Source of the DNA: an uncultured Flavobacteriaceae bacterium
GTDB taxonomy: Bacteria; Bacteroidota; Bacteroidia; Flavobacteriales; Flavobacteriaceae
NCBI GenBank assembly: GCA_963793275.1
Contig: CAWBZL010000002.1
Coordinates: forward strand, 101,590-165,589
DNA: 64,000 nucleotides
Direction of reading: 5' to 3'
Shown here: positions 29,876 to 49,073 of the stretch, in pieces
Layout of the letters: each line of letters opens with the position of its first letter
Position numbering within the stretch: the first letter of the stretch is position 1
Translations under genes and position numbers: made by a program
Notes under the pieces: generated by a model
Told to the model about the DNA's origin: nothing
The model's database searches: none
Seen by the model: the letters and a program-made list of their open reading frames with translations, nothing else

Positions 29876-29959
29876 CGGGAGTGCGTCAACGCTGGAGAGT
29901 TGAGATAGTCTGTAAAACTATTCCTTAGTAGCTGAATAGGTTCAAATCCTTTCACTCCC
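29876..29959 (+). tRNA. tRNA-Tyr(GTA)-like, class II, with aberrant D-arm and a T-stem mismatch
   Basis: Perfect acceptor stem gggagtg/cactccc, anticodon arm atagt-ctgtaaa-actat and a long variable arm. C8 replaces U8, the D-loop is atypical and the T-stem has a U:U mismatch. Confidence 0.35.
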
Positions 29960-29962
29960 ACA

Positions 29963-30035
29963 GAGTACCGTAGTTCAAAGGCTGGAGCGTCCGGTTGTCT
30001 CCCGGAAAGGTACGGGTTCGAGTCCCGTCGGTACT
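29963..30035 (+). tRNA. tRNA-Asp(GTC)
   Basis: 73-nt cloverleaf: acceptor agtaccg/cggtact, D-stem gttc/gagc, anticodon loop ttgtctc, T-arm acggg-ttcgagt-cccgt. Position 37 is U rather than a purine. Confidence 0.6.
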
Positions 30036-30167
30036 GCGAATGATATTGAAGGAGTTTGCATCGGGACGAGAAGTTTATCCTGAGTAGTGGTGAGGCACGA
30101 GCCGCGAATCGAAGGGAGTCCCGTCGGTACGGTCATGCCTCCGACGAGAGAGGCACGAACCAGAGGA

Positions 30168-30239
30168 AGGCACTTTAGCATAGTGGTTGGTGCACCTCAC
30201 TTTCTATGAGGAGACCAGGGTTTGATTCCCTGATGGAGT
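30168..30239 (+). ncRNA. tRNA-Glu(TTC)-like unit with non-pairing acceptor 3' strand (degenerate)
   Basis: It has D-, anticodon- (cctca-ctttcta-tgagg) and T-arms, but the T-loop tttgatt lacks C56 and the 3' strand atggagt cannot pair with 5' ggcactt. Confidence 0.3.
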
Positions 30240-30243
30240 ACAA

Positions 30244-30339
30244 TGGGCTTATGGTGTAGCGGATAGCATGCTTGGCTTCGAACCAAGTGGTATGTTGCCT
30301 GTGCCGCACTTGATGCGGTATTCAAATCCTGTTAAGCCC
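30244..30339 (+). ncRNA. tRNA-like unit (anticodon TCG) carrying a ~20-nt hairpin insertion in the variable/T region
   Basis: Perfect acceptor gggctta/taagccc and anticodon arm cttgg-cttcgaa-ccaag. A 44-nt segment containing hairpin tgccgca-cttga-tgcggta sits where the variable loop and T-arm should be, and cctgt is duplicated. Confidence 0.3.
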
Positions 30340-30344
30340 ACAAA

Positions 30345-30417
30345 TTGAGGTATAACTCAGCGGCTAGAGTACCGTGCTTTTAACACGGGAGTCCTAGGTT
30401 CAAATCCTAGTGCCTCA
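30345..30417 (+). tRNA. tRNA-Lys(TTT)
   Basis: 73-nt canonical cloverleaf with U8A9, D-stem actc/gagt, anticodon loop cttttaa and T-arm ctagg-ttcaaat-cctag. The 1:72 pair is U:A. Confidence 0.7.
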
Positions 30418-30421
30418 ACAA

Positions 30422-30492
30422 TAAACCCATAGTGTAGTGGTAGCACACAAGATTTTGATTCTTGGGGTCTGAGTTCGAATCTCGGTGGGTTT
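30422..30492 (+). tRNA. tRNA-Gln(TTG)
   Basis: 71-nt cloverleaf with acceptor aaaccca/tgggttt, anticodon arm caaga-ttttgat-tcttg and T-arm ctgag-ttcgaat-ctcgg. Confidence 0.7.
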
Positions 30493-30500
30493 ACACTATA

Positions 30501-30573
30501 TGGAACAGTAGCAAAGCGGGTCAATGCACTGGATTGAAGCTCCAGGAATACGGGTTCGAGTCCTGTCTGTTCC
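30501..30573 (+). tRNA. tRNA-Phe(GAA)
   Basis: 73 nt with perfect acceptor ggaacag/ctgttcc, anticodon arm ctgga-ttgaagc-tccag and T-arm acggg-ttcgagt-cctgt. Confidence 0.7.
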
Positions 30574-30574
30574 A

Positions 30575-30754
30575 CGAAAGGTCTGTAACGCAGATGATAG
30601 TATCAAGCGGGTCTTGTTGTGTGTTTCGGTATAGCACCATTGCATACGGCGTTGCAACTAGTATTGCGAACGTATGTGCAACTTGACTTGAAGGTTTTGC
30701 TGTTTTCCAAAAAATAGCGGCAATCGTTTCGTGGGTTCGAATCCCACTCCCGCC
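30575..30754 (+). ncRNA. structured spacer ending in a canonical tRNA T-arm plus acceptor-3'-like tail, with no matching 5' half
   Basis: gtggg-ttcgaat-cccac at 30730-30746 followed by tcccgcc. Upstream contains the palindrome gttgcaac and hairpins, but no complementary acceptor 5' strand. Confidence 0.2.
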
Positions 30755-30756
30755 CA

Positions 30757-30840
30757 AGCAGGGATAGCGTAGTGGTTAACGCACCAGATAAAGGATCTGG
30801 CAAACGAGAGCAGATGTCGCGGGTTCGACTCCCGCTCCCA
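30757..30840 (+). ncRNA. class II tRNA-like unit (Leu-like, anticodon region AAG) with a 5-nt anticodon loop and a mismatched acceptor
   Basis: U8A9, D-arm gcgt-agtggtta-acgc, long variable region and canonical T-arm gcggg-ttcgact-cccgc. The anticodon hairpin ccagat-aaagg-atctgg has no U33, and only 4 of 7 acceptor pairs form. Confidence 0.25.
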
Positions 30841-30847
30841 ATGTAAA

Positions 30848-37929: not shown

Positions 37930-38066
37930 AGGTAGCAAAATAAAGGCTTCGAATGGTGCAAAAATAAACAATTCAAATGCTTTATAGATGCGGATTAAAA
38001 CAAAAAACCTTCCATAAAGAAAGGCTTTATAAGCAAAAAGTATCGTATGAATTTTAAAATTACTAT

Positions 38067-38705
38067 TTAAGACGAAATAAATAGTACTTCTCCATCTACC
38101 AACACATAAATTTCATCTTTTTCAGAAGGCGTTAGTATATATTTTCCGGTAAAACTCCCAAAGGCGGGGAAAATTAGTTGTTTTTCAGTTTTATAGAAAC
38201 AGGCAACTCTTACTGTTTGCCTGCCAACACCTTGTAACTTTACACCCGGATGAATATGGCCACAAAAATTGAAATACGCATCCAATTCTGTTGGGTGATG
38301 TGTTAACAGAAATTTTTCGAGTATAAGTTCTTTATAGATTTGAACTCCTAACGCTTCAAATAAGTATTGCGGAATGATATCGTGATTCCCTGAAATTAAA
38401 ATAACCTGCGCTGAGGTATAGTCTACCCACTTTGCAAAATCGCTCCACTCACTATTTAAGTTACTGTGAAAAAGATCGCCTAAAAAACAAACCGTCTGTG
38501 GCTGAAAGTGATTTACAACACCCGTTAATTTTTCTAAATTTTCATAAGCAACGTGTGCAGGAATTGCGGCTCCGTGTTTTCTGAAATGCGTCACTTTTCC
38601 TAAGTGTACATCGGCGATGAGTAGCATTGATTTTTGTTCCCAAAATATTGCTCCGCTGGGGTGGAGGATGAAGTTTTGATCGTTTATGGAAATGGTTTGG
38701 GACAT
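38067..38705 (-). CDS. pdeM: ligase-associated DNA damage response endonuclease PdeM (metallophosphoesterase)
   Basis: 212 aa calcineurin-like phosphoesterase (DVHLGK, GDLFH, GNHD). It is the last gene of the ligase-Lhr operon. Confidence 0.75.
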
Positions 38706-38808
38706 CAGACTGCAAAAATACAGCTTTAGTCATTTCGACGCAGGAGAAACCACATAACAATGACTACTATATTATTTTAATAAGGATTATAACAGTTGAA
38801 ATTATTCA

Positions 38809-41268
38809 TTATTTCATCAATTTTAACGTCATTCGTTTAATTCTATCCTTCAATTTTTCTGAAGAAAGCTTTTCCCGTAACCTGTCGGTAATAATGGGGA
38901 AACTAAAAGGCGTGGCTTCTTCGCATTGTTTCCAAACTATTTCTTGGCTGGCAATTCGCTCCAATGCCAATCGTAGTCTGCCTTCTTCCATTTCGTGTTC
39001 AAAAGTTTCTCTAAATGCCTGTTGGTATAACAAATTATCTGCTTCGTAATCTCTAAACACATCAAACAGCAATTGCGAATTGCTTTGCAGGTGCTTGGTT
39101 TTTATTTGTTTGCTAGGATAGCCCGTAAAAACCAAACCACTTATTACAGCAATATCTCTGAATTTTCTGCGGGCCAATTCAGTACTATTTAAACTTTTTT
39201 GAAGGTCGCTAAAAAGATAGTCAGTGCTAAATAAATTATTGTCCACCACATTCTGAATATCCAAAGGCTGATCGCTCAACAATTCAAAGCCATAATCATT
39301 GTATGCAAGGGAAAAAGTGATGGGAGAAAGCAAACTAATTCTGTACGCCAATAATCCGCCCATTGCCATATGTACAAACCGCCCTTCAAATGGATAAAAT
39401 AAATGGTGATAGCCTTCTCTGGTTTTAAAGGTTTCTATTAAAAACTCATTATTTCCAGGAACAATACTTTCTTTTTCCTGTCTGTCAAAAATATCTGAAA
39501 GAGCTTTTAACTCAGGCGTGTTTCTCTTATGATCTGCTTCAGACTGCAGTTCGTTTCGTAAAATTTCAGACATCTGAGAAGAAAGTGCCATGCGCCCTCC
39601 CATAAAACTTACTACATTTCTTGTGCGCTTGCTACTGCGTCTTACCTGAGCGGCCATATTTCGAACCCTAACCAGTTCCAACGTTCTTCCCGCAAATACA
39701 AATACATCTCCGGGTTTCATTTTTCCTATAAAAAATTCTTCGATGGTACCTATAAATCCGCCACTCACGTATTTTACCTGCACCATTGCATCACTTACTA
39801 TAGTGCCAATAGACAGACGGTGCATCATAGCTGTTTGGCGGCTGTCCACGTAAAACCTCCCATCGTCGTCTACTAAAACGCGTTTATATTCGTCATAAGC
39901 CTGCAAGCTCTGGCTTCCTAGTGTGATAAAATTGAGGCACCATTGCCATTGTTCTTCAGTAATTCCCTGAAAACAAAAGGTGTTTTTAATTTCCGGATAT
40001 ATGTCTTTGGGATAAAAACCATCACTTACAGCAAGGGTTACTAAATACTGAATTAACACATCAAAACTTAACAAATACGGGATGCGGTCTTCCATTACTT
40101 CCCCTTTTACAGCTTTTTTTAGTGCCGAAGCTTCTATCAACTCCATAGCGTGTGTTGGCAAAAAATGAATTACTGATGGTTCTCCGGGTCTGTGATTGCT
40201 ACGCCCTGCCCGTTGTAAAAACTTAGCAATTCCTTTAGGCCCACCAATTTGAATAATAGTTTCTACAGGCGCAAAGTCTACTCCCAGATCCAAACTTGAG
40301 GTAGCCACCACAGCTTTTAAACTTTCGTTTCGTATCGCTTGTTCTACCCACAATCTGGTTTCCTTATTGATGCTTCCGTGATGCATCGCTAATTCGCCAG
40401 CAAACTCCGGATACTTCTCTAAGATTTTCTGAAACCAAATTTCGCATTGACCGCGGGTATTGGTAAAGATGAGTGTAGTTTTACTGGATTTTATAATAGG
40501 TATAATGTCGTCCAGCAAGTGCAATCCCAAATGCCCGCGCCAGGGAAAGGTTTCCATTTTTTTAGGAATAATAGATTTTACAACTATTTTTTTCTTGATG
40601 TTTGCTTTTAATAAAATCGAATTTTCGCGTAACGCTTCATTCATTCCCAGTAACACATCCTGCGCTTGTTCTAAATTTCCAATAGTTGCCGAAATTCCCC
40701 AAATACGAAGCTGAGGCGAGATGGTTTTAAGTCTGGATAAGCCAAGTTCCATCTGCACACCACGTTTGCTGCCAAGGAGCTCGTGCCATTCATCTACCAC
40801 TACAGCTGTAAGGTTTCCGAAGATCTTTTTATAGCCTTTACTTGCCAACAACAACATTAAACTTTCTGGAGTTGTAATGAGTAAATCGGGCATGTTCCGT
40901 TTTTGCTTTGCCCGCTCACTTTGCGCAGTATCACCGGTTCTTATTCCCACAGTTAAGCCTGTTTCCAGTTCGTCTGCAAAACGTTGTGCCGCTTGTTTAA
41001 TTTCTACCGAAAGTGCCCGCAGCGGAGTAATCCAGATTGCTTTTAAACCTTTTGTGTGTTTAGTTTTATATTCCGGATGGTCTTTTATATACTGCAATAC
41101 AATAGGAACCCAAAGTGCATAGGTTTTCCCGCTTCCCGTAGGAGCATTTAGAAGCCCGTGTTTTCCTTGTAAAAATGCCTTCCAGGTTTTTTTCTGAAAT
41201 GGGAATGCCTTCCAGTTTTTAGACTCGAACCAGGTTTCGGCTATTTCTATTAATTGGGATTGATTCAT
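38809..41268 (-). CDS. lhr: ligase-associated DNA damage response DEXH-box helicase (Lhr-like)
   Basis: 819 aa with Walker A APTGSGKT, a DEWH box, helicase C motifs and a long C-terminal Lhr extension. Confidence 0.8.
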   Translation of the reverse strand: MNQSQLIEIAETWFESKNWKAFPFQKKTWKAFLQGKHGLLNAPTGSGKTYALWVPIVLQYIKDHPEYKTKHTKGLKAIWITPLRALSVEIKQAAQRFADELETGLTVGIRTGDTAQSERAKQKRNMPDLLITTPESLMLLLASKGYKKIFGNLTAVVVDEWHELLGSKRGVQMELGLSRLKTISPQLRIWGISATIGNLEQAQDVLLGMNEALRENSILLKANIKKKIVVKSIIPKKMETFPWRGHLGLHLLDDIIPIIKSSKTTLIFTNTRGQCEIWFQKILEKYPEFAGELAMHHGSINKETRLWVEQAIRNESLKAVVATSSLDLGVDFAPVETIIQIGGPKGIAKFLQRAGRSNHRPGEPSVIHFLPTHAMELIEASALKKAVKGEVMEDRIPYLLSFDVLIQYLVTLAVSDGFYPKDIYPEIKNTFCFQGITEEQWQWCLNFITLGSQSLQAYDEYKRVLVDDDGRFYVDSRQTAMMHRLSIGTIVSDAMVQVKYVSGGFIGTIEEFFIGKMKPGDVFVFAGRTLELVRVRNMAAQVRRSSKRTRNVVSFMGGRMALSSQMSEILRNELQSEADHKRNTPELKALSDIFDRQEKESIVPGNNEFLIETFKTREGYHHLFYPFEGRFVHMAMGGLLAYRISLLSPITFSLAYNDYGFELLSDQPLDIQNVVDNNLFSTDYLFSDLQKSLNSTELARRKFRDIAVISGLVFTGYPSKQIKTKHLQSNSQLLFDVFRDYEADNLLYQQAFRETFEHEMEEGRLRLALERIASQEIVWKQCEEATPFSFPIITDRLREKLSSEKLKDRIKRMTLKLMK

Positions 41269-41269
41269 G

Positions 41270-42919
41270 TTACTTAGGAATCAAAGCTCTCAGATCGTCC
41301 AGGGTATTTGCTTCTTCTATAGGTTTGTCTTTTCTCCATCGCAATATTCTTGGAAACCTGGTGGCAATACCGCTTTTATGTCGTTTACTTTCAGCAATGC
41401 CCTCAAAAGCTATTTCAAAAACGTGATGTGGTGTAACGCTTCTTACACGACCAAAGCGTTCCAGGGTGTTCTTTTTTATCCAGGCATCTACTTGTCTGAA
41501 TTCGGCATCTGTGAGACCCGAATATGCTTTTGCAAAAGTTACCAGTTCTCCTTCATCCCAAAGACCAAAGGTATAATCTGTATATAAATTTGCGCGCCTT
41601 CCGTGACCACGCATGGCGTAGGTGAGCACACCGTCTATGGTGAATGGGTCGGTTTTCCATTTCCACCAATCGCCTTTTTTTCGGCCAACTAAATAAGGAG
41701 AATCTTTGCGTTTCAGCATTAAACCTTCACTGCGTTTTTCTCGCGATAATTTTCTTTCGGCTGCGGCATCTTCCCAGGTTTTAAACGTCATTGTTTCGCT
41801 TAGATACAAGCCTATTTCGTCACAACTACATTCTGAAATTAAAGTGTCCAGAATTTCTCTTCTTTCTGAAAAGGGCTTTTGCCGGATATCTTTTCCTTTC
41901 CACTCCAATAGATCGTAAGCATTCAAAATCACCGGTGTTTTCTCCAGTAATTTTTTTGAAATATTCTTTCTGCCAATACGAGTTTGAAGGTCGTTAAAAT
42001 TTCCAATTTCATTATTTCCGAAGGGTAAAATTTCACCATCCAAAACGGTACCGTTAGGAATTTTTGAAAGGAAGCGTTGAAATTCAGGGTATTTATCGGT
42101 AACTAGTTCTTCGCCTCTGGACCAGACAAACACTTCGTCATTTCTGATAATTACCTGGCTCCTGATACCATCCCATTTATGTTCAAAACTCCAGCCTTTA
42201 ATATCGCCCAGATCTTCCTGAAAATTATCTTCTACAGCATACGCCAGATAAAACGGATAGGGTTTACTGAGGTAATCTTCCGGGTTTTCTTCTAAAATTA
42301 AATCCTGAAACGTGGTTGTATCTGCAGTCCAGTTACCCATTAGTTTATAGGCAAGTATGTCTTCATCTATTCCCGTAGATTTTGAGAGTGATCGGGTCAT
42401 TAATTTTTGACTCACCCCAATTCTAAAACCACCCGTAATAATTTTATTGAACACAAAACGCTCAAAATAGCTCATTCTCAACCAGTTTTCCTGAAGATAG
42501 CTTCTTTTTTCATCTTCTTCGAGTGTACGTAGCGTAATGATTTCGTTACAGTATTGAGACAGCGATTTTTCCCGAATTCCCAGCGCCTCTCCCGCTGAGA
42601 GGGGAATATTCTTTTCTTCCTTTTTTAGGGAGTGTTTAGGTGCGCTTGGAATTATTAAGGCAATAGTTTCGGCCAGATCACCCACTATATGATAGCTTTC
42701 TTCAAATAACCACTGTGGGATGCCACTAATTTCGGTTGCCCATAACCTTAGAAGTGTTGTGTTTACAGGGCGTTTTGGTCTTCTGTGTGAGAGTATGGCA
42801 ATGGTCCATAGTTTATCATCTTCACCCGCATTGTTAAAATATTCGGTGAGTGCAGCCACTTTCAAGGTGGTTTTATTGGTACTATCCAGAGTTTTTATGA
42901 GGGCAGCAAAATGTTTCAT
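41270..42919 (-). CDS. ATP-dependent DNA ligase (ligase-associated DNA damage response ligase)
   Basis: 549 aa with adenylation motif I EHKWDGIR and OB-fold region. There is a 4-bp overlap with the upstream exonuclease gene. Confidence 0.8.
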   Translation of the reverse strand: MKHFAALIKTLDSTNKTTLKVAALTEYFNNAGEDDKLWTIAILSHRRPKRPVNTTLLRLWATEISGIPQWLFEESYHIVGDLAETIALIIPSAPKHSLKKEEKNIPLSAGEALGIREKSLSQYCNEIITLRTLEEDEKRSYLQENWLRMSYFERFVFNKIITGGFRIGVSQKLMTRSLSKSTGIDEDILAYKLMGNWTADTTTFQDLILEENPEDYLSKPYPFYLAYAVEDNFQEDLGDIKGWSFEHKWDGIRSQVIIRNDEVFVWSRGEELVTDKYPEFQRFLSKIPNGTVLDGEILPFGNNEIGNFNDLQTRIGRKNISKKLLEKTPVILNAYDLLEWKGKDIRQKPFSERREILDTLISECSCDEIGLYLSETMTFKTWEDAAAERKLSREKRSEGLMLKRKDSPYLVGRKKGDWWKWKTDPFTIDGVLTYAMRGHGRRANLYTDYTFGLWDEGELVTFAKAYSGLTDAEFRQVDAWIKKNTLERFGRVRSVTPHHVFEIAFEGIAESKRHKSGIATRFPRILRWRKDKPIEEANTLDDLRALIPK

Positions 42920-44016
42920 ACCGTATCGTCCTCCTCTTTTTTATTCACTTCGCTTCCTTCTTCTTCATATTGTGTTTTTTCGGTGCGTGCATCCAGGCCC
43001 ATTTCTTCACGCAGATATCTAGAGAAAATCTCGGTATAGCCGTGGGTGGCGATAACTTTTTCAGCACCTGTGTCTTTTACAGTTTGTAGCAATCCGTCCC
43101 AATCTGCGTGATCGCTTAGTACAAATCCGCGGTCTATGGCACGGCGCCTTCTTGCCCCTCTGAACGTCATCCATCCGCTCGCGCTGGCGGTTACATACGG
43201 TACCATCTTTCTGATCCAGGTTCCTCCGTGTGCACTGGGCGGGGCAAGTACTATATTGCCTAACAATTCTTCTTTTTTGGTCTCACGGGTAATGCGTGTA
43301 GTTTCGTGAAAGTTATAATTTTCTCTAAGCACTGCTGTCATATTTTCTATGGCACCGTGGGTGTAAATTTTGCCAATATCCGGATCCAGATGTTTCAGCA
43401 AACGTTGTGCTTTTCCCAGACTGTAGCCAAAAAGGATAGACGTTTTATTTTCTGCTCTGTTGGTGGCCCACCAGTTATTTATGTCTTTAAAAACTTCGGC
43501 CTGTGGGGTCCATTTAAATGCCGGGAGACCAAAGGTACATTCGGTAATAAAGGTGTTGCATTTTACCAGTTCAAAAGGTTCGGCAATGCCGTCATTTTCG
43601 GTTTTAAAATCGCCTGTAAAGACCCAGACTTCTCCTTTATACATTGCTCTTACCTGGCTACTTGCAACAATATGCCCAGCGGGATGAAGACTAAAGGTGA
43701 CTCCGTTTATGGTAAAAGTTTCTCCCCATTTCTTACCGCTTACGGTTATTTCTCCCAGGCGGTGCTTAATAATGGGTACATTTTTATGATGGGTAATGTA
43801 TTGTTTGTGTCCCCACCGACTGTGGTCTGCGTGGCCGTGGGTGATGATGCACTTATCTACAGGACGCCAGGCGTCTATATAAACATCTGCCTGCTTGCAG
43901 TAGATGCCTTTGTCGTTAAATTGAAGGAGTGGTGTTTTAGGCAATTTTTCAGAATTTTCTCGATAATTGAAGTTTGCATGGTCCGAGGTTTGCCTCGAAT
44001 TTAAATTTTTCGCCAT
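42916..44016 (-). CDS. ligase-associated DNA damage response exonuclease (MBL-fold/beta-CASP)
   Basis: 366 aa with metallo-beta-lactamase motif HGHADH and beta-CASP-like C-terminal region. It is the first gene of the operon. Confidence 0.75.
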   Translation of the reverse strand: MAKNLNSRQTSDHANFNYRENSEKLPKTPLLQFNDKGIYCKQADVYIDAWRPVDKCIITHGHADHSRWGHKQYITHHKNVPIIKHRLGEITVSGKKWGETFTINGVTFSLHPAGHIVASSQVRAMYKGEVWVFTGDFKTENDGIAEPFELVKCNTFITECTFGLPAFKWTPQAEVFKDINNWWATNRAENKTSILFGYSLGKAQRLLKHLDPDIGKIYTHGAIENMTAVLRENYNFHETTRITRETKKEELLGNIVLAPPSAHGGTWIRKMVPYVTASASGWMTFRGARRRRAIDRGFVLSDHADWDGLLQTVKDTGAEKVIATHGYTEIFSRYLREEMGLDARTEKTQYEEEGSEVNKKEEDDTV

Positions 44017-44208
44017 CTAATGCTTTGTGAGCTTACCTCCGAGGTAATTTACTTGGTTTCTTTAAAATTACAGATTTTAAAAGGTTTGTATTTCAGAATT
44101 AAGAAAAGTTTAATGCTTTAAAATTTCCGAATATTTACAAAAAAGATTCTCTTGCTTTCTTCGGAATTTTTTAGGACTTAGATTATATTTGTGCCATAAA
44201 TAAGAACT

Positions 44209-44634
44209 ATGTCATTTACAGATTTATTTGAGAGTGGAGAACACAAGAGAAACCTGGGTCATTTTGCATCTATTGCAAATATGGCATCGGTAGACGGAGC
44301 TTTGAATGCTGAAGAAGAAAAATTGTTACGCCGTTTTGCCAAGAAATTGGATATTGATGAAACCTTATATGAAGCGGTTTTAAAAAACCCGGGTAAATAT
44401 CCTATTAACCCTCCAAACGATGCAGACAGAAGGCTGGAGCGTATGCATGATCTATTTGAAATGATCTTTGCAGACCACGAGATAGACGATCACGAGCGTT
44501 TTTTAATTGAAAAATATGCTATTGGTTTAGGATATACTGCAGATTTAGCCTCAAAACTTATTAAAAGATCTATTGAAATATATAGCGGTGGTCTGGATAT
44601 GGAAGACTACCGATACCTTTTGAACAAAAAGTAA
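44209..44634 (+). CDS. TerB-family (tellurite resistance / DjlA N-domain-like) protein
   Basis: 141 aa with two repeats of the TerB-like helical motif (ASVDGALNAEEEKLLRRFAKKLDID / HEIDDHERFLIEKYAIGLG). Confidence 0.55.
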   Translation: MSFTDLFESGEHKRNLGHFASIANMASVDGALNAEEEKLLRRFAKKLDIDETLYEAVLKNPGKYPINPPNDADRRLERMHDLFEMIFADHEIDDHERFLIEKYAIGLGYTADLASKLIKRSIEIYSGGLDMEDYRYLLNKK

Positions 44635-44653: not shown

Positions 44654-46153
44654 TTAAAAGAGCTTTTCGATACTGTCGAAGAGCTCTTTTTGCGTATAGG
44701 GTTTTGGTAAAAAAGCCGAAGCTCCCGAAGCCATCATTTGCTCTTGTTTCTGCAACATAGTGCTTCCACTGGCAACTAAAATAGGAATGTGTTGTATGTT
44801 GGAATCCTGCTTGCACTTTCTTATAAAGGCTATACCAGAGCTGTCTGCCAATGCTCCCTTACTAACAATAAGGTTGTAATTTCTTTTTCTCAACAATTCA
44901 AACGCCTGGTTTGCATCCTGCGCTATTTCTAAAATAATTCCTTTCTCATTGTTAAGGAAGGTTCGCATGAAGAGCATTTGGTTGGTTTCAATTTCTTCAA
45001 TAACCAGAATACGCTTGCTCATTAAAATTCCAGAACCTTTTGGCACTGTAGACCTTTTTTCTTTCCTTTTTCTCTCTTTAAAGGGTAGTAAGCAGGAAAA
45101 AGTAGTGCCGTCTTTATTGCTTGTAACCGAAATTTTCCCATCCAATACTGTCACTAGGTCTTTTACAATTTTAAGGCCTAAACCTTCACCAATGGGCTTA
45201 ATTGCATCCTCCTTTAACTGATAATAAGAATCGAAAACACGGTCAATTTCCGAAGTTGGGATTCCCTTTCCGGAGTCTGAAACTGAAATAGCAAGCATAC
45301 AATTTTCAGCACTGTTTTCTTTCAAAGTAACTCCTAATAGTATGGAGCCATGTGTTGTGTTTCTGAAGGCGTTTTCTAATAAATTAAATAGTATTTGATT
45401 TAACCGAAAAGGATCACCAATTAATTTTTTTGGAACTGTTTTTTCAATACTTGCTTCCAGCAAAATATTTTTTTTGCTGAACTTTAATTTATAATGTTGT
45501 TCCAGATTAGTTATAATGTGACCTAAATTAAAGGGAACCTGTTGCTTGGTAATAATTCCCCGCTCAATTTTTGAGATATCCAGCATATCGTCCATGAGTT
45601 GCTTTATTTGCAACCCGGTACGCTCCATTACCTTAAGTGTTTCGTTTTGATCGTAGGAAAGTTTTGTTTTTCTTAGCAACTCCATAAAACCCAGTAGGTT
45701 GTTTAACGGATTTCGGATTTCGTGATTAATATTCGCCAAAAAATTATTTTTGAAATTCTCTTTCGCCAGCAATAACTTCTTGTCAAAAGTTAATCTGTTT
45801 TTTGCAATAGCGGCTTCGTTTTTCTGCTGTACCAGTGGGTGTGCATCCCTGTAATGCGTTGTAAAGTCGAATAACAGCAAATAAATAGTATCCTCTCGTC
45901 GTACAATACTTATGTCTAAAATCTTACTAAAACCATCGCCGGAAAGATTTACACAGGGATAGGTAACATCTTGTGAAACTTCGGGAATTATGTTGATAAT
46001 GGTTTCAAAAAAAGGATGAAAACTAGTGATGTTTTCATTTTCAGTAAAAGGAAACAATACATCATCACTTTCAATCACGGCACCTTCTTTGGTTATTTCA
46101 ATTTGCTGAATCCTTGTGTTGAGAAACTCTTCTTTTAAGAGGGCAGTATTCAT
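44654..46153 (-). CDS. hybrid sensor histidine kinase/response regulator with uncharacterised N-terminal sensor domain
   Basis: 499 aa with N-terminal ~150-aa domain X, a DHp H-box (NINHEIRNPLNNLLGF), HATPase_c N/G boxes and a C-terminal REC domain with a conserved Asp context. Confidence 0.8.
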   Translation of the reverse strand: MNTALLKEEFLNTRIQQIEITKEGAVIESDDVLFPFTENENITSFHPFFETIINIIPEVSQDVTYPCVNLSGDGFSKILDISIVRREDTIYLLLFDFTTHYRDAHPLVQQKNEAAIAKNRLTFDKKLLLAKENFKNNFLANINHEIRNPLNNLLGFMELLRKTKLSYDQNETLKVMERTGLQIKQLMDDMLDISKIERGIITKQQVPFNLGHIITNLEQHYKLKFSKKNILLEASIEKTVPKKLIGDPFRLNQILFNLLENAFRNTTHGSILLGVTLKENSAENCMLAISVSDSGKGIPTSEIDRVFDSYYQLKEDAIKPIGEGLGLKIVKDLVTVLDGKISVTSNKDGTTFSCLLPFKERKRKEKRSTVPKGSGILMSKRILVIEEIETNQMLFMRTFLNNEKGIILEIAQDANQAFELLRKRNYNLIVSKGALADSSGIAFIRKCKQDSNIQHIPILVASGSTMLQKQEQMMASGASAFLPKPYTQKELFDSIEKLF

Positions 46154-46155
46154 AA

Positions 46156-46680
46156 TTACAATGTTTGTGAAGCTATTTCCCGAAAAGTCTCGGCTACATT
46201 TTCCCCTGTTTTGGCACTGGTAAAAAAGCAGTTGCTAAAATGATTTTCTTTAAAAAAATCTTTAGTAAACTCTTCTGAAAAAAGATCGGCTTTGTTTCCC
46301 ACAAAACACACTGGAATGGTTGGATATTTTGTAGACAGAAAAGCCATCTCTTCGGCAATGTTTTCGTAGGTTTCCGGGTGGGTAATGTCGAACACATACA
46401 TAAAGCCGTGGGTGCCCAATAAATAACTTTCTCTGGCTTTTGCTATGGAGGTATTTCCCTCGATATCCCAGATTATTAAGTTTATTTGTGTTGTATCCAG
46501 CGTTACTGTTTTTTTCTTTACGTGTACACCAACCGTTACCAGATAATCTTCGCTAAAAGCGCTCTCCACGAATTGGCGCACTAAACTGGTTTTTCCCACT
46601 CCAAAATGGCCAAGAATTACAATTTTTTTTGAATGGGTCATGGTTGGGTTTTTTATGCACGCAAATATATCCGAAAACAA
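46156..46680 (-). CDS. Ras-like small GTPase (MglA/Rab-like), copy B
   Basis: G1 GHFGVGKTS, switch-I Thr, G3 WDIEG, G4 GNKADL and G5 SAK. The start is probably the internal Met preceding THSKKIVILG. A 2-bp gap separates it from the downstream HK. Confidence 0.7.
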   Translation of the reverse strand: MFSDIFACIKNPTMTHSKKIVILGHFGVGKTSLVRQFVESAFSEDYLVTVGVHVKKKTVTLDTTQINLIIWDIEGNTSIAKARESYLLGTHGFMYVFDITHPETYENIAEEMAFLSTKYPTIPVCFVGNKADLFSEEFTKDFFKENHFSNCFFTSAKTGENVAETFREIASQTL

Positions 46681-46737
46681 AAGATGCTGCTATTTAATTG
46701 AAAGAACTTAAGGTGCAGTTTGTCGAAAACTCACTCG

Positions 46738-47340
46738 CTAAGCATCGAAGTCAAAGTCCAATTCTTCTCGTATCTGGATTGCTTTAAGGTGAAAATTACC
46801 TATACTTTTTTCAATATCCTGTATAAGTTGCCGTTGCTCTGGTGCTATTTCACCTTGTTTTAGTTGCTCCACTTTTGAGATAATGTATTCCAGGGCGCCT
46901 ATCACTTTATCGTCAATACGCTCTCTCATAAAGCCTAAATAGGCCTGTTTTTCTTCTAAATGCTTTCTTCTTAAATTGTGTTCCTGTTCCTGTAATAGTG
47001 CTGTCTTTTTTTCCTGAGCCGCCTCGTGTAAATGTTCGTAATGCTGAGAATAGTCAAAAAGTAAAATGGCCAGAAAATCCGGTTCTTTTTTAATAGTAAT
47101 ATCACATATAGCTTCTTTACCGTGAATGTTTAGTTGTACACAAGGGAAAGCCAAGCTACTGCCAAAGATCTCTCTACTTTGCAATTCGATCTGTAAACTC
47201 TCAAAAAATGGATGAATTTCATATAAATTATCCTTCTTATTTAATAAAAAAATGGTGTCGCTACTTTCAAAAATCTCGCCCGTGGGTTTGGCGTGGATTT
47301 CCTGAATCTTCTTCGAAAAAAATAAATTCTGGTTTGTCAT
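46738..47340 (-). CDS. stand-alone paralogue of the HK N-terminal sensor domain with degenerate DHp-like C-terminus (His replaced by Arg)
   Basis: 200 aa. Residues ~10-110 align with HK residues ~15-115 (shared HPFFE, PCV-L, LLFD-x3-HY). The C-terminus YLGFMRERIDDKV aligns with the HK H-box but lacks the His, and there is no ATPase domain. Confidence 0.55.
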   Translation of the reverse strand: MTNQNLFFSKKIQEIHAKPTGEIFESSDTIFLLNKKDNLYEIHPFFESLQIELQSREIFGSSLAFPCVQLNIHGKEAICDITIKKEPDFLAILLFDYSQHYEHLHEAAQEKKTALLQEQEHNLRRKHLEEKQAYLGFMRERIDDKVIGALEYIISKVEQLKQGEIAPEQRQLIQDIEKSIGNFHLKAIQIREELDFDFDA

Positions 47341-47828
47341 TTTGTTAGTTTTTTTGCTAAGTCTGTAAATACTTCTTGCACGCCCTCTCCCGTTTTGGCA
47401 CTTACAAAGCTGTCTGCTTCTATGTCTTTTTTAAGGAGGTAGTCTATGACGTGTTTGGGGTTTTCTAAGTCACTTTTGTTACCAATTAATTTTAAACTTA
47501 CATGCTCGTATTTTTCTGAAATAAAAGCAATTTCTTTTTCAAGGTTCTCGTACGTAACGGGTCTGGTAATATCAAAAACATATATAAATCCTTCTGAGCC
47601 TAGTAGGTAGGATGGTCGTGCTTTGTCAATAGAAGAAAATCCTTCAAGGTCCCAGATTATCATAGATATTTGTTTTCCATTTGGCAGGTCCAAGACCTTT
47701 TTCTTTATCTGTACGCCCAGTGTGGTTTTATAGTCGTGTTCAAAAACATCTTCCAGCAGCCTTCGCATTAACGAAGTTTTTCCAACCCCAAACTGCCCCA
47801 TGAGCACTATTTTCTTTGAAAGATTCAT
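47337..47828 (-). CDS. Ras-like small GTPase (MglA/Rab-like), copy A
   Basis: 163 aa with G1 GQFGVGKTS, G3 WDLEG, G4 GNKSDL and G5 SAK. There are 4-bp overlaps with both flanking genes. Confidence 0.7.
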   Translation of the reverse strand: MNLSKKIVLMGQFGVGKTSLMRRLLEDVFEHDYKTTLGVQIKKKVLDLPNGKQISMIIWDLEGFSSIDKARPSYLLGSEGFIYVFDITRPVTYENLEKEIAFISEKYEHVSLKLIGNKSDLENPKHVIDYLLKKDIEADSFVSAKTGEGVQEVFTDLAKKLTK

Positions 47829-48637
47829 TTGTTAAAGAATTTTTTCAAAAACAAATCGGTTTCTTCTCTGGAAAGATGCGAAACACCAGAGGACATTTTT
47901 TTTGAAAGTTTAAATAATTTATTTTCTAATTGGCTCTCAAAAGAGCGCGTGTAATTTCCTGAAACTACCACAGCAATATAAAAACTATGGAAGTTCTGAA
48001 TATGAATGGTGTACAACTCATATTCAATATTTTCTAAATTTTGAGTACCCCCTTTAAAAGCATCTTCAACAAAACTCTTTATAGCAGTTAGCATCCCGGA
48101 AATCATGTCTTTATCTACCGTTTCGGTTTTACTGTGATTCCCTAAGAGAATGCCAGATCCCTTTTGGATGAGAAATACCTCGCTAATTACAGGCGGATTC
48201 GTTTCTGTAAGTATAAGATCGCTTTCCTTAACACCCGTAAATCGTGCACGTACTTTTCGCTTTAAACTTATAAGAGAGAACGTATTGTTCACCTTTTTGT
48301 TTACTGTTTCGGAGAGTACTTTTATTTCATTTTGTACGTAGCGTTTAATCATTTTACCCATAATTGGGTATAGCGCTTCTACCACGGCATCCCGAGAATT
48401 TGCGATTTCAGTCTTTAATGTTTTTGTTATTGTTGGTCCTAATGTTACGGGTATTTCGGCTATAAATTCATTCAGTTTTTCCTGAATGATGGGATCTATT
48501 TTTTCTGAAAGTTTAGCACGTTGCTCAATTGTTTGGGTAATTACATCGAGGCGTTGGTTTACAGCACTGGCAATTTCCCTGTCGTCTACCAACAGGATAT
48601 CACGTAGCAGCTGCAATTTATCCTCTTCTTTCACCAT
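47825..48637 (-). CDS. Roadblock/LC7 (MglB-like) domain protein with ~150-aa N-terminal extension
   Basis: 270 aa. The C-terminal ~110 aa (VFLIQKGSGILLGNH...DMISGMLTAIKSF...YIAVVVSGNY) matches the Roadblock/LC7 pattern of GTPase-regulating MglB proteins. Confidence 0.6.
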   Translation of the reverse strand: MVKEEDKLQLLRDILLVDDREIASAVNQRLDVITQTIEQRAKLSEKIDPIIQEKLNEFIAEIPVTLGPTITKTLKTEIANSRDAVVEALYPIMGKMIKRYVQNEIKVLSETVNKKVNNTFSLISLKRKVRARFTGVKESDLILTETNPPVISEVFLIQKGSGILLGNHSKTETVDKDMISGMLTAIKSFVEDAFKGGTQNLENIEYELYTIHIQNFHSFYIAVVVSGNYTRSFESQLENKLFKLSKKMSSGVSHLSREETDLFLKKFFNK

Positions 48638-49001: not shown

Positions 49002-49073
49002 TGGTTTGGTTTTCTTCGTCTAAATTTAAGAAAAATTTAAGATAAAGTGCGTATGGCAGTGGAAATAATGACC

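Follow-up and report, generated by a model that had tools for sequence, protein, structure and literature searches.

The window analysed here is a 64 000-nucleotide stretch of DNA (contig CAWBZL010000002.1 of GenBank assembly GCA_963793275.1) from an uncultured marine member of the Flavobacteriaceae, kin of Rasiella, Patiriisocius and Aequorivita. We conclude, with a probability of about 0.88, that positions 38067-44016 hold an intact chromosomal copy of the Exo-LigB-Lhr-Core-MPE cluster, known at NCBI as the 'ligase-associated DNA damage response' (LADDR) set and comprising an exonuclease (Exo), an ATP-dependent DNA ligase, a helicase and a metallophosphoesterase (MPE or PdeM). None of the four proteins is truncated, and no catalytic motif is missing from any of them. 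The cluster is already known, and is annotated routinely by PGAP in many related genomes; only a conserved upstream box, a putative internal promoter for pdeM and a repeat in the leader go beyond that annotation.

Four full-length LADDR proteins in the canonical order

Four open reading frames (ORFs) on the minus strand fill the interval: 42916-44016 (366 residues), 41270-42919 (549), 38809-41268 (819) and 38067-38705 (212). We assign them as follows, the first with a probable downstream start codon that is discussed below.

42916..43944, minus strand: LADDR exonuclease (Exo), a β-CASP metallo-β-lactamase nuclease of 342 residues from TTG 43944, assigned by TIGR04122, motifs and fold
41270..42919, minus strand: LigB-type ATP-dependent DNA ligase of 549 residues with DNA-binding, adenylation and oligonucleotide-binding (OB) domains and adenylated lysine K248
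38809..41268, minus strand: Lhr-Core DEXH helicase of 819 residues with RecA1, RecA2, Lhr winged-helix and domain 4, lacking the C-terminal extension
38067..38705, minus strand: PdeM/MPE, a binuclear metallophosphoesterase of 212 residues and predicted single-stranded DNA endonuclease, assigned by TIGR04123 and alignment with 6NVO

Each protein scores above the cut-off of its own NCBIfam equivalog model over the whole length of that model, and the genes are adjacent, on one strand and in the order Exo-Lig-Lhr-MPE. This is also the order published for Pseudomonas putida and that of an annotated Comamonas record. An earlier note on this DNA had proposed a complete LADDR cluster in canonical order, and both claims are borne out by the four scores (TIGR04122, TIGR04120, TIGR04121 and TIGR04123), the gene coordinates and the motifs described here.

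Exo matches TIGR04122 at 457 bits (cut-off 325), covering model positions 1-326 of 326, and contains the motifs HGHADH (of the HxHxDH type), HPAGH, FTGDF, ITECTF, SDHAD and ATHG expected of a β-CASP nuclease. Pfam searches agree with the gene identities for three of the four proteins (Lig, Lhr and PdeM); Exo is the exception, matching no Pfam family at E ≤ 0.001. Its AlphaFold model (mean predicted local distance difference test score 79, predicted template modelling (TM) score 0.78) retrieved CPSF73, Ysh1, IntS11, archaeal CPSF1 (aCPSF1), RNase J and SNM1A in a fold search, with probability 1.0 and TM scores of 0.6-0.7. Thus Exo shares the metallo-β-lactamase and β-CASP fold and the signature motifs with SNM1A/Apollo and CPSF73, although it is only 13-18% identical to them and, at 342 residues, much shorter. 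Orthologues from Marinirhabdus, Altibacter, Aureitalea, Christiangramia, Zunongwangia, Aquimarina and others, 75-92% identical (best match 92%), carry the name 'ligase-associated DNA damage response exonuclease'.

The ligase scores 600 bits against TIGR04120 (cut-off 400) and 677 against NF006701 (cut-off 543). Pfam resolves the N-terminal DNA-binding (PF04675), adenylation (PF01068) and C-terminal OB (PF04679) domains, and residues 5-544 align end to end with three-domain archaeal-type ligase structures (E 2e-42). Nucleotidyltransferase motifs I, III, IIIa, IV, V and VI are present, with the KWDGIR motif named in the earlier note located at residues 248-253 as motif I, which supplies the lysine. 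Loss of the adenylation or OB domain would have spoken against a LADDR ligase; both are there, so that identity stands. The protein likewise has the features of the bacterial LigB class (Williamson & Leiros 2020), combining DNA-binding, nucleotidyltransferase and PF04679-type OB domains with an association with Lhr, MPE and Exo.

The helicase matches TIGR04121 at 1124 bits (cut-off 850). It contains PF00270 (DEAD), PF00271 (Helicase_C), PF19306 (Lhr winged-helix, 220 bits) and PF08494 (Lhr domain 4, 183 bits), together with motif I (PTGSGKT), motif II (DEWH, residues 159-162) and motif VI (QRAGRSNH), and both of its halves align with the Mycobacterium smegmatis Lhr-Core structure 5V9X (E 8e-54). 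With its DEWH motif, two Lhr-specific domains and this alignment, it is not a generic DEAD-box protein. The RecA1-RecA2-winged helix-domain 4 arrangement is shared with the M. smegmatis and E. coli Lhr proteins (alignment with 5V9X and 7LHL, E approx. 1e-53). The full-length forms of the latter, however, carry a tetramerizing C-terminal domain of about 650 residues that the window helicase lacks, and they are linked to Nei2 or RNase T rather than to MPE, ligase and Exo.

PdeM matches TIGR04123 at 232 bits (cut-off 150), is recognized by Pfam as a calcineurin-like phosphoesterase and aligns with the P. putida MPE structure 6NVO (E 1.7e-26). In that alignment D32, H34, D77, H80, N107, H108, H136, H150 and H152 fall on D33, H35, D78, H81, N112, H113, H142, H156 and H158 of 6NVO, so the binuclear metal site is complete. 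His81 and His113, which are essential for nuclease activity in P. putida (PMC7826289), are both kept. Two of the ligands are numbered His124 and His146 in that paper; the conserved histidines are residues 142 and 156 in the aligned 6NVO chain.

Among characterized systems, the P. putida cluster (PMC7826289) is the closest parallel, with the same four families in the same order on one strand. Its Lhr-Core lacks a C-terminal domain, as does the 819-residue window helicase, and its MPE of 216 residues compares with 212 here, metal ligands and two essential histidines included. The relationship is nevertheless distant, given the E-value of the MPE alignment and the fact that Exo is less than 60% identical to proteobacterial copies; the host belongs to the Bacteroidota, and in the window Lhr and PdeM are separated by a spacer with its own −7 box instead of overlapping. 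From the NCBI/TIGRFAM LADDR set as applied by PGAP in Flavobacteriaceae, all four cut-offs of which are passed, the window copy differs in nothing of substance, although a look-up in the contig collection gave no identical ligase sequence.

A fixed site in the Flavobacteriaceae

A scan with the helicase, taking one genome per species, confirmed 553 matching stretches; the comparisons here use the best 80 loci (individual loci carry L numbers), onto which fourteen window proteins were mapped to assess synteny. All 80 are from Flavobacteriaceae, including Rasiella, Patiriisocius, Jejudonia, Aequorivita, Altibacter, Aquimarina, Maribacter, Christiangramia and other genera, and helicase identity ranges from 93% down to 73%. 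Most of these species share the synteny FBPase-TerB-Exo-Lig-Lhr-PdeM, where FBPase denotes the fructose bisphosphatase gene. The full conserved order is FBPase, an optional cassette of Ras-like GTPases and a histidine kinase, a divergent TerB-like gene and then the repair cluster. The relevant neighbours in the window are these:

44209-44634, plus strand: divergent TerB-like gene of 141 residues; the Pfam TerB match is weak and partial (E 9e-7, residues 24-54)
44654-48637, minus strand: five-gene cassette encoding a 270-residue protein, a Ras-like GTPase, a 200-residue protein, a second Ras-like GTPase and a hybrid histidine kinase/receiver
29877-30843, plus strand: a group of seven tRNA genes (Tyr, Asp, Glu, Lys, Gln, Phe, Leu); it does not adjoin the repair cluster but lies some 7 kb downstream of PdeM

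The earlier note had taken the TerB and GTPase/kinase neighbours as a sign that the cluster is accessory. This is not supported: across the family, in many genera, the TerB-like gene is strongly conserved beside both FBPase and the repair cluster, and it is the cassette that varies. The cassette, two of whose proteins found no match in Pfam or NCBIfam, is inserted between FBPase and the TerB-like gene in only some relatives. It is absent from the closest of them, L001 (Rasiella sp.) and L003 (a metagenome-assembled genome), which share the downstream metG-tex genes with the window (L003 also the deacetylase (HDAC) gene), so the cassette is the variable part while the repair cluster sits at a fixed inherited site. 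By these sequence comparisons, the cluster is inherited vertically at that site in the Flavobacteriaceae.

A recently acquired accessory island is, by comparison, very unlikely. ATP-dependent ligases in bacteria are indeed non-essential, patchily distributed and accessory to the NAD-dependent replicative ligase (PMC7470946), and the cluster is not uniform among relatives. Exo and Lig are missing, with TerB-Lhr-PdeM retained, in some Maribacter/Muricauda-type genomes (L054, L067, L069, L079 and L080), and PdeM is not found within about 10 kb downstream of Lhr in the Christiangramia/Autumnicola/Salegentibacter group (L047, L048, L051, L052, L058, L059, L065 and L071). Exo homologues also occur on a few large proteobacterial secondary replicons. 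Against this, position and orientation beside FBPase and TerB are constant over dozens of genera as identity falls smoothly from 93% to 73%, the downstream metG-tex-HDAC flank is common to the nearest relatives, and tRNA genes are absent from the 7 kb to either side of the cluster. Its G+C content (0.38-0.43) is in line with that elsewhere in the window (0.35-0.44), and no sign of mobility was seen beside it. We also considered the cluster as a mobile element and rejected this: Exo homologues are present on only 81 of 72 556 plasmids, all of them large proteobacterial replicons (78 of the 81 non-mobilizable), and no Bacteroidota plasmid carries the cluster.

Gene junctions and a putative internal pdeM promoter

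The junctions depart from the 'overlapping' form claimed for all of them in the earlier note. Exo and Lig share 4 nt (gtATGAaa), a single nucleotide stands between Lig and Lhr (TAA-C-ATG), and a 103-nt spacer (38706-38808) lies between Lhr and PdeM, so only one of the three junctions overlaps. In the annotated Comamonas record all three do, which suggests that the note described the canonical form and not the window copy. Two candidate transcription signals flank pdeM:

38713..38720, minus strand: perfect Bacteroidetes −7 box TATTTTTG, a putative internal pdeM promoter, 7 nt before the PdeM ATG and within the Lhr-PdeM spacer
38004..38028, minus strand: intrinsic-terminator-like hairpin and T run, a 10-pair stem followed by TTGTTTTAAT, 39 nt past the PdeM stop codon

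Judged from its position, TATTTTTG may yield a near-leaderless pdeM mRNA, and the hairpin likely marks the 3′ end of the transcription unit. The 4-nt overlap, the 1-nt spacer, the terminator-like site after PdeM and the lack of any such site in the Lhr-PdeM spacer (by a terminator consensus scan) all point to co-transcription; the −7 box before PdeM is a contrary sign. The likely outcome is a read-through transcript of all four genes plus a separate, near-leaderless pdeM transcript.

It is possible, though we favour it less, that the cluster is not one operon, with Exo-Lig-Lhr forming one unit and pdeM transcribed for the most part separately, from the TATTTTTG box. The perfect match to TAnnTTTG so close to the start codon suggests this, and the arrangement recurs, with a TAnnTTTG box 6-9 nt before the PdeM start, in many relatives in which PdeM stands apart from Lhr; relatives in which the two genes overlap need no such box. 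In L001, L003 and L006 the two genes are parted by genes on the opposite strand (acetyl-CoA synthetase, joined in L006 by acyl-CoA carboxylase genes), an arrangement in which pdeM needs a promoter of its own. PdeM also evolves faster than its neighbours, with 72-73% identity to the nearest relatives compared with 85-93%. On the other hand, the spacer contains no terminator-like site, which makes read-through from Lhr likely too. The two genes share 1-4 nt in many relatives and in Proteobacteria, and no link within the system is better conserved than that between Lhr and MPE (276 of 319 genomes; PMC8301817). We retain the read-through transcript with an additional pdeM transcript as the likelier arrangement.

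The Lhr-PdeM junction is an insertion hot-spot. In about 24 of some 70 related loci it holds 0.5-5.7 kb of unrelated genes on either strand (for example L003 12461-14824, L006 12461-18162, L012, L043 and L064). The genes identified there encode acetyl-CoA synthetase, acyl-CoA carboxylase, an AAA_14/DUF4143 ATPase, a peptidyl-prolyl isomerase, a ParE toxin, a DUF559 endonuclease and a nitroreductase. L003 has, in addition, a DUF559-like ORF between Lig and Lhr.

A conserved box upstream of Exo

Two short elements lie in the intergenic region between the TerB-like gene and Exo:

44098..44113, minus strand: conserved 16-nt box, TTAAACTTTTCTTAAT in the window, with the family consensus CTAAACTTTTCTTAAT; a putative regulator or activator site
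44063..44070, minus strand: −7-like box TAATTTTA, a putative promoter, to be compared with the Bacteroidetes consensus TAnnTTTG; the 16-nt box lies 27 nt upstream

The window copy of the box differs from CTAAACTTTTCTTAAT at the first position (T). Allowing up to two mismatches, the consensus is found in 45 of 81 loci (the window and 44 relatives), in the Exo orientation every time, with only five further matches in the 1.79 Mb of loci and window combined. Thirteen of the 16 positions are identical in at least 40 of 42 copies, and the flanks are near random. The box remains beside Exo where TerB is distant or absent (L034, L029 and L060). A two-mismatch match at 49025-49039 was considered as a second site and set aside as within chance expectation.

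In 34 loci, the window included, a TAnnTTTA motif is found 26-27 nt downstream of the box; in relatives, some 18 nt separate this motif from the start codon. The motif resembles the Bacteroidetes −7 element and may act as one. This spacing would place the 16-nt box at about −41 to −56, centred some 48 nt before the predicted transcription start, where sites for activators or other regulators are typically found. One tentative reading, to which we give clearly less than even odds, is that CTAAACTTTTCTTAAT binds a dedicated transcription factor that switches LADDR on independently of a LexA-like SOS response. Apart from the putative pdeM promoter and the leader repeat, the box appears to be the sole new item on the cluster proper.

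The LexA-like SOS operators described for Bacteroidetes are GGA-N5-TCC and CTAA-N5-TTAG (PMC8565304); the text of that paper mentions ligase nowhere. Neither motif occurs in the TerB-Exo intergenic region of the window, and known SOS operators were accordingly rejected as the control of LADDR. Of the two, GGA-N5-TCC has eight matches in the window, none within 43900-44210, and it appears upstream in just one of 64 relatives (L017). The promoter region therefore does not place the cluster in the Bacteroidetes SOS regulon.

Some further sequence features were noted in passing. The TerB-like gene has a perfect −7 box of its own, TATATTTG, about 17 nt before its ATG. In several relatives the TerB-Exo intergenic region contains repeated TTCCGAAG/CTTCGGAA motifs, and in the whole window ATTCCGAAG (up to one mismatch) occurs 31 times against 15.6 expected, a count reached in none of 100 shuffles.

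The Exo start codon and an inserted repeat in the leader

The longest Exo ORF begins at ATG 44016, giving 366 residues, and the earlier note had set the 5′ boundary of the cluster there. That boundary is doubtful, and the true start is probably TTG 43944. The Exo ORF in 64 relatives starts at the equivalent of window codon 25/26, where the window has TTG (43944) and the two nearest relatives have GTG. The 120 best Exo homologues listed are 336-375 residues long, mostly 338-345, and the TIGR04122 match begins only at residue 30 of the 366-residue ORF. ATG 44016, moreover, lies inside an inserted repeat, sequence that is missing in the nearest relatives:

43953..44054, minus strand: degraded three-hairpin intergenic repeat of about 100 nt, containing the palindrome TACCTCGGAGGTA and ATG 44016; 86.9 bits with covariance model R1

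The hairpins are, in order, CCTCG-GGGCAAGCCC-A-CGAGG, CGAGGCAAACCTCG and CTCGATTATCGAG. The repeat is absent from the Exo leader of L001 and L003; in the window it lies just downstream of the −7-like box and so would be transcribed as part of the leader. Homologous copies were found in L073 (7114-7216; Aquimarina) and in seven metagenome loci (L096-L099, L103, L110 and L119). The L073 copy is also upstream of Exo, while its sister loci L055 and L063 lack the repeat. The metagenome copies occupy short spacers between unrelated genes, in both orientations. The covariance model detected a single repeat in the window, the 1.73 Mb of loci yielded one or two, and Rfam gave no match at E ≤ 1.

Hairpins 1 and 3 carry compensatory changes, with five pairs changed on both sides compared with 1.9 in shuffled controls, in a small sample; hairpin 2 was fixed by the search pattern. 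When folding was compared with shuffled sequences, the L073 repeat stood out (z −3.44), but the window repeat folded no better than its shuffles (z −0.35). Because copies lie in both orientations between unrelated genes, the element reads as an intergenic element of marine Flavobacteriia, resembling repetitive extragenic palindromes (REPs) or miniature inverted-repeat transposable elements (MITEs), and not as part of the repair system. Two other roles were considered and dropped. The palindrome TACCTCGGAGGTA is not a plausible operator, being part of a repeat inserted in the window lineage only, and a LADDR-specific leader RNA is at odds with the placement of the metagenome copies, the rarity of the element and the lack of an Rfam match.

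Proposed function and alternatives

The earlier note had called the module known but sparsely characterized, as the literature bears out. Published studies in P. putida deal with Lhr-Core and MPE. Lhr-Core is a 3′-to-5′ helicase that requires a single-stranded loading strand, and MPE is a Mn-dependent endonuclease for single-stranded DNA, cleaving tails, loops and bulges as well as the strand that faces a nick. LigB-type ligases seal nicks unaided, and Exo is thought to be akin to SNM1B/Apollo (all PMC7826289, PMC7470946). Mycobacterial Lhr confers resistance to mitomycin C and cisplatin, and deletion of lhr leads to crosslinker sensitivity (PMC9841417). A literature search for newer functional work on the cluster or Exo returned mentions in genome annotation only.

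Taking the enzyme roles from this published work on P. putida and mycobacterial homologues, the best reading of LADDR is a pathway that would unwind, incise, resect and seal, acting on crosslinks or other blocking lesions. Transcription would start from the TAnnTTTA −7 promoter, 27 nt downstream of the 16-nt box as the probable regulator site, with an additional promoter directly before the start codon of pdeM. Lhr-Core would load on single-stranded DNA, move 3′ to 5′ and open the duplex, whether DNA or RNA:DNA, where a lesion or a stalled intermediate occurs. PdeM, with two Mn2+ ions, would then cut the exposed single-stranded flaps, loops and bulges, and the β-CASP Exo, by analogy with SNM1/Apollo, would trim the damaged strand. 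The gap would be filled by a polymerase encoded elsewhere, and the ligase, adenylated at K248 with ATP, would seal the remaining nick.

Several observations weigh against this reading. The Exo family is without biochemical characterization (PMC7470946), and the nearest folds of the Exo model are mostly RNA-processing nucleases. The order of action and the natural substrate of LADDR are undetermined even in P. putida (PMC7826289, PMC7470946). As described above, no known SOS operator lies upstream in the window, and known regulons accordingly give no reason to expect induction by damage. Finally, relatives with genes between Lhr and PdeM, without Exo and Lig or without a nearby PdeM indicate that the four genes need not act as one obligate unit.

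The fold comparison also underlies the main functional rival, in which the module acts chiefly on RNA:DNA hybrids or RNA, such as R-loops or RNA-primed intermediates, instead of classical lesions. In the fold-search ranking, nucleases of RNA 3′-end processing and decay (CPSF73, Ysh1, IntS11, aCPSF1 and RNase J) come out on top and SNM1A first appears at rank 44. Lhr unwinds DNA-RNA as well as DNA-DNA duplexes (PMC7470946), and M. smegmatis Lhr prefers 3′-tailed RNA:DNA hybrids, to judge from the title of a reference cited in PMC8301817. Yet likeness in the β-CASP fold cannot separate DNA from RNA substrates, and the partner enzymes favour DNA: the ligase is a three-domain enzyme of the DNA-ligase type and MPE is a single-strand DNA endonuclease (PMC7826289). 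The crosslinker sensitivity of the mycobacterial lhr deletion (PMC9841417) points the same way. We regard an RNA-directed function as unlikely. Far less probable still is a role in defence against phages or plasmids, with an Lhr-like helicase and nucleases as the core of the module; this reading we rejected. PADLOC does report matches of the helicase to SngC (229 bits), BrxHI (199) and DpdJ (192), but these are partial superfamily matches that span residues 13-596 only and fall far below the 1124 bits of TIGR04121. PADLOC finds no match for Exo or the ligase and only a partial, 19-bit one for PdeM (PDC-S10, E 1.4e-4), and the conserved syntenic position is unlike that of a defence island.

LADDR is a recognized but sparsely characterized repair pathway, and the window copy brings no new component to it. 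What it offers to work in the Bacteroidota is a cluster inherited vertically at a fixed site, with a sharply conserved upstream box distinct from the SOS operators, a putative pdeM promoter and a Lhr-PdeM junction that tolerates insertions. Should CTAAACTTTTCTTAAT prove to be the site of a dedicated transcription factor, the protein that binds it would show which signal the LADDR repair pathway answers. Comparisons among the Flavobacteriaceae provide testable handles on the regulation of this pathway, though modest and clade-specific ones.

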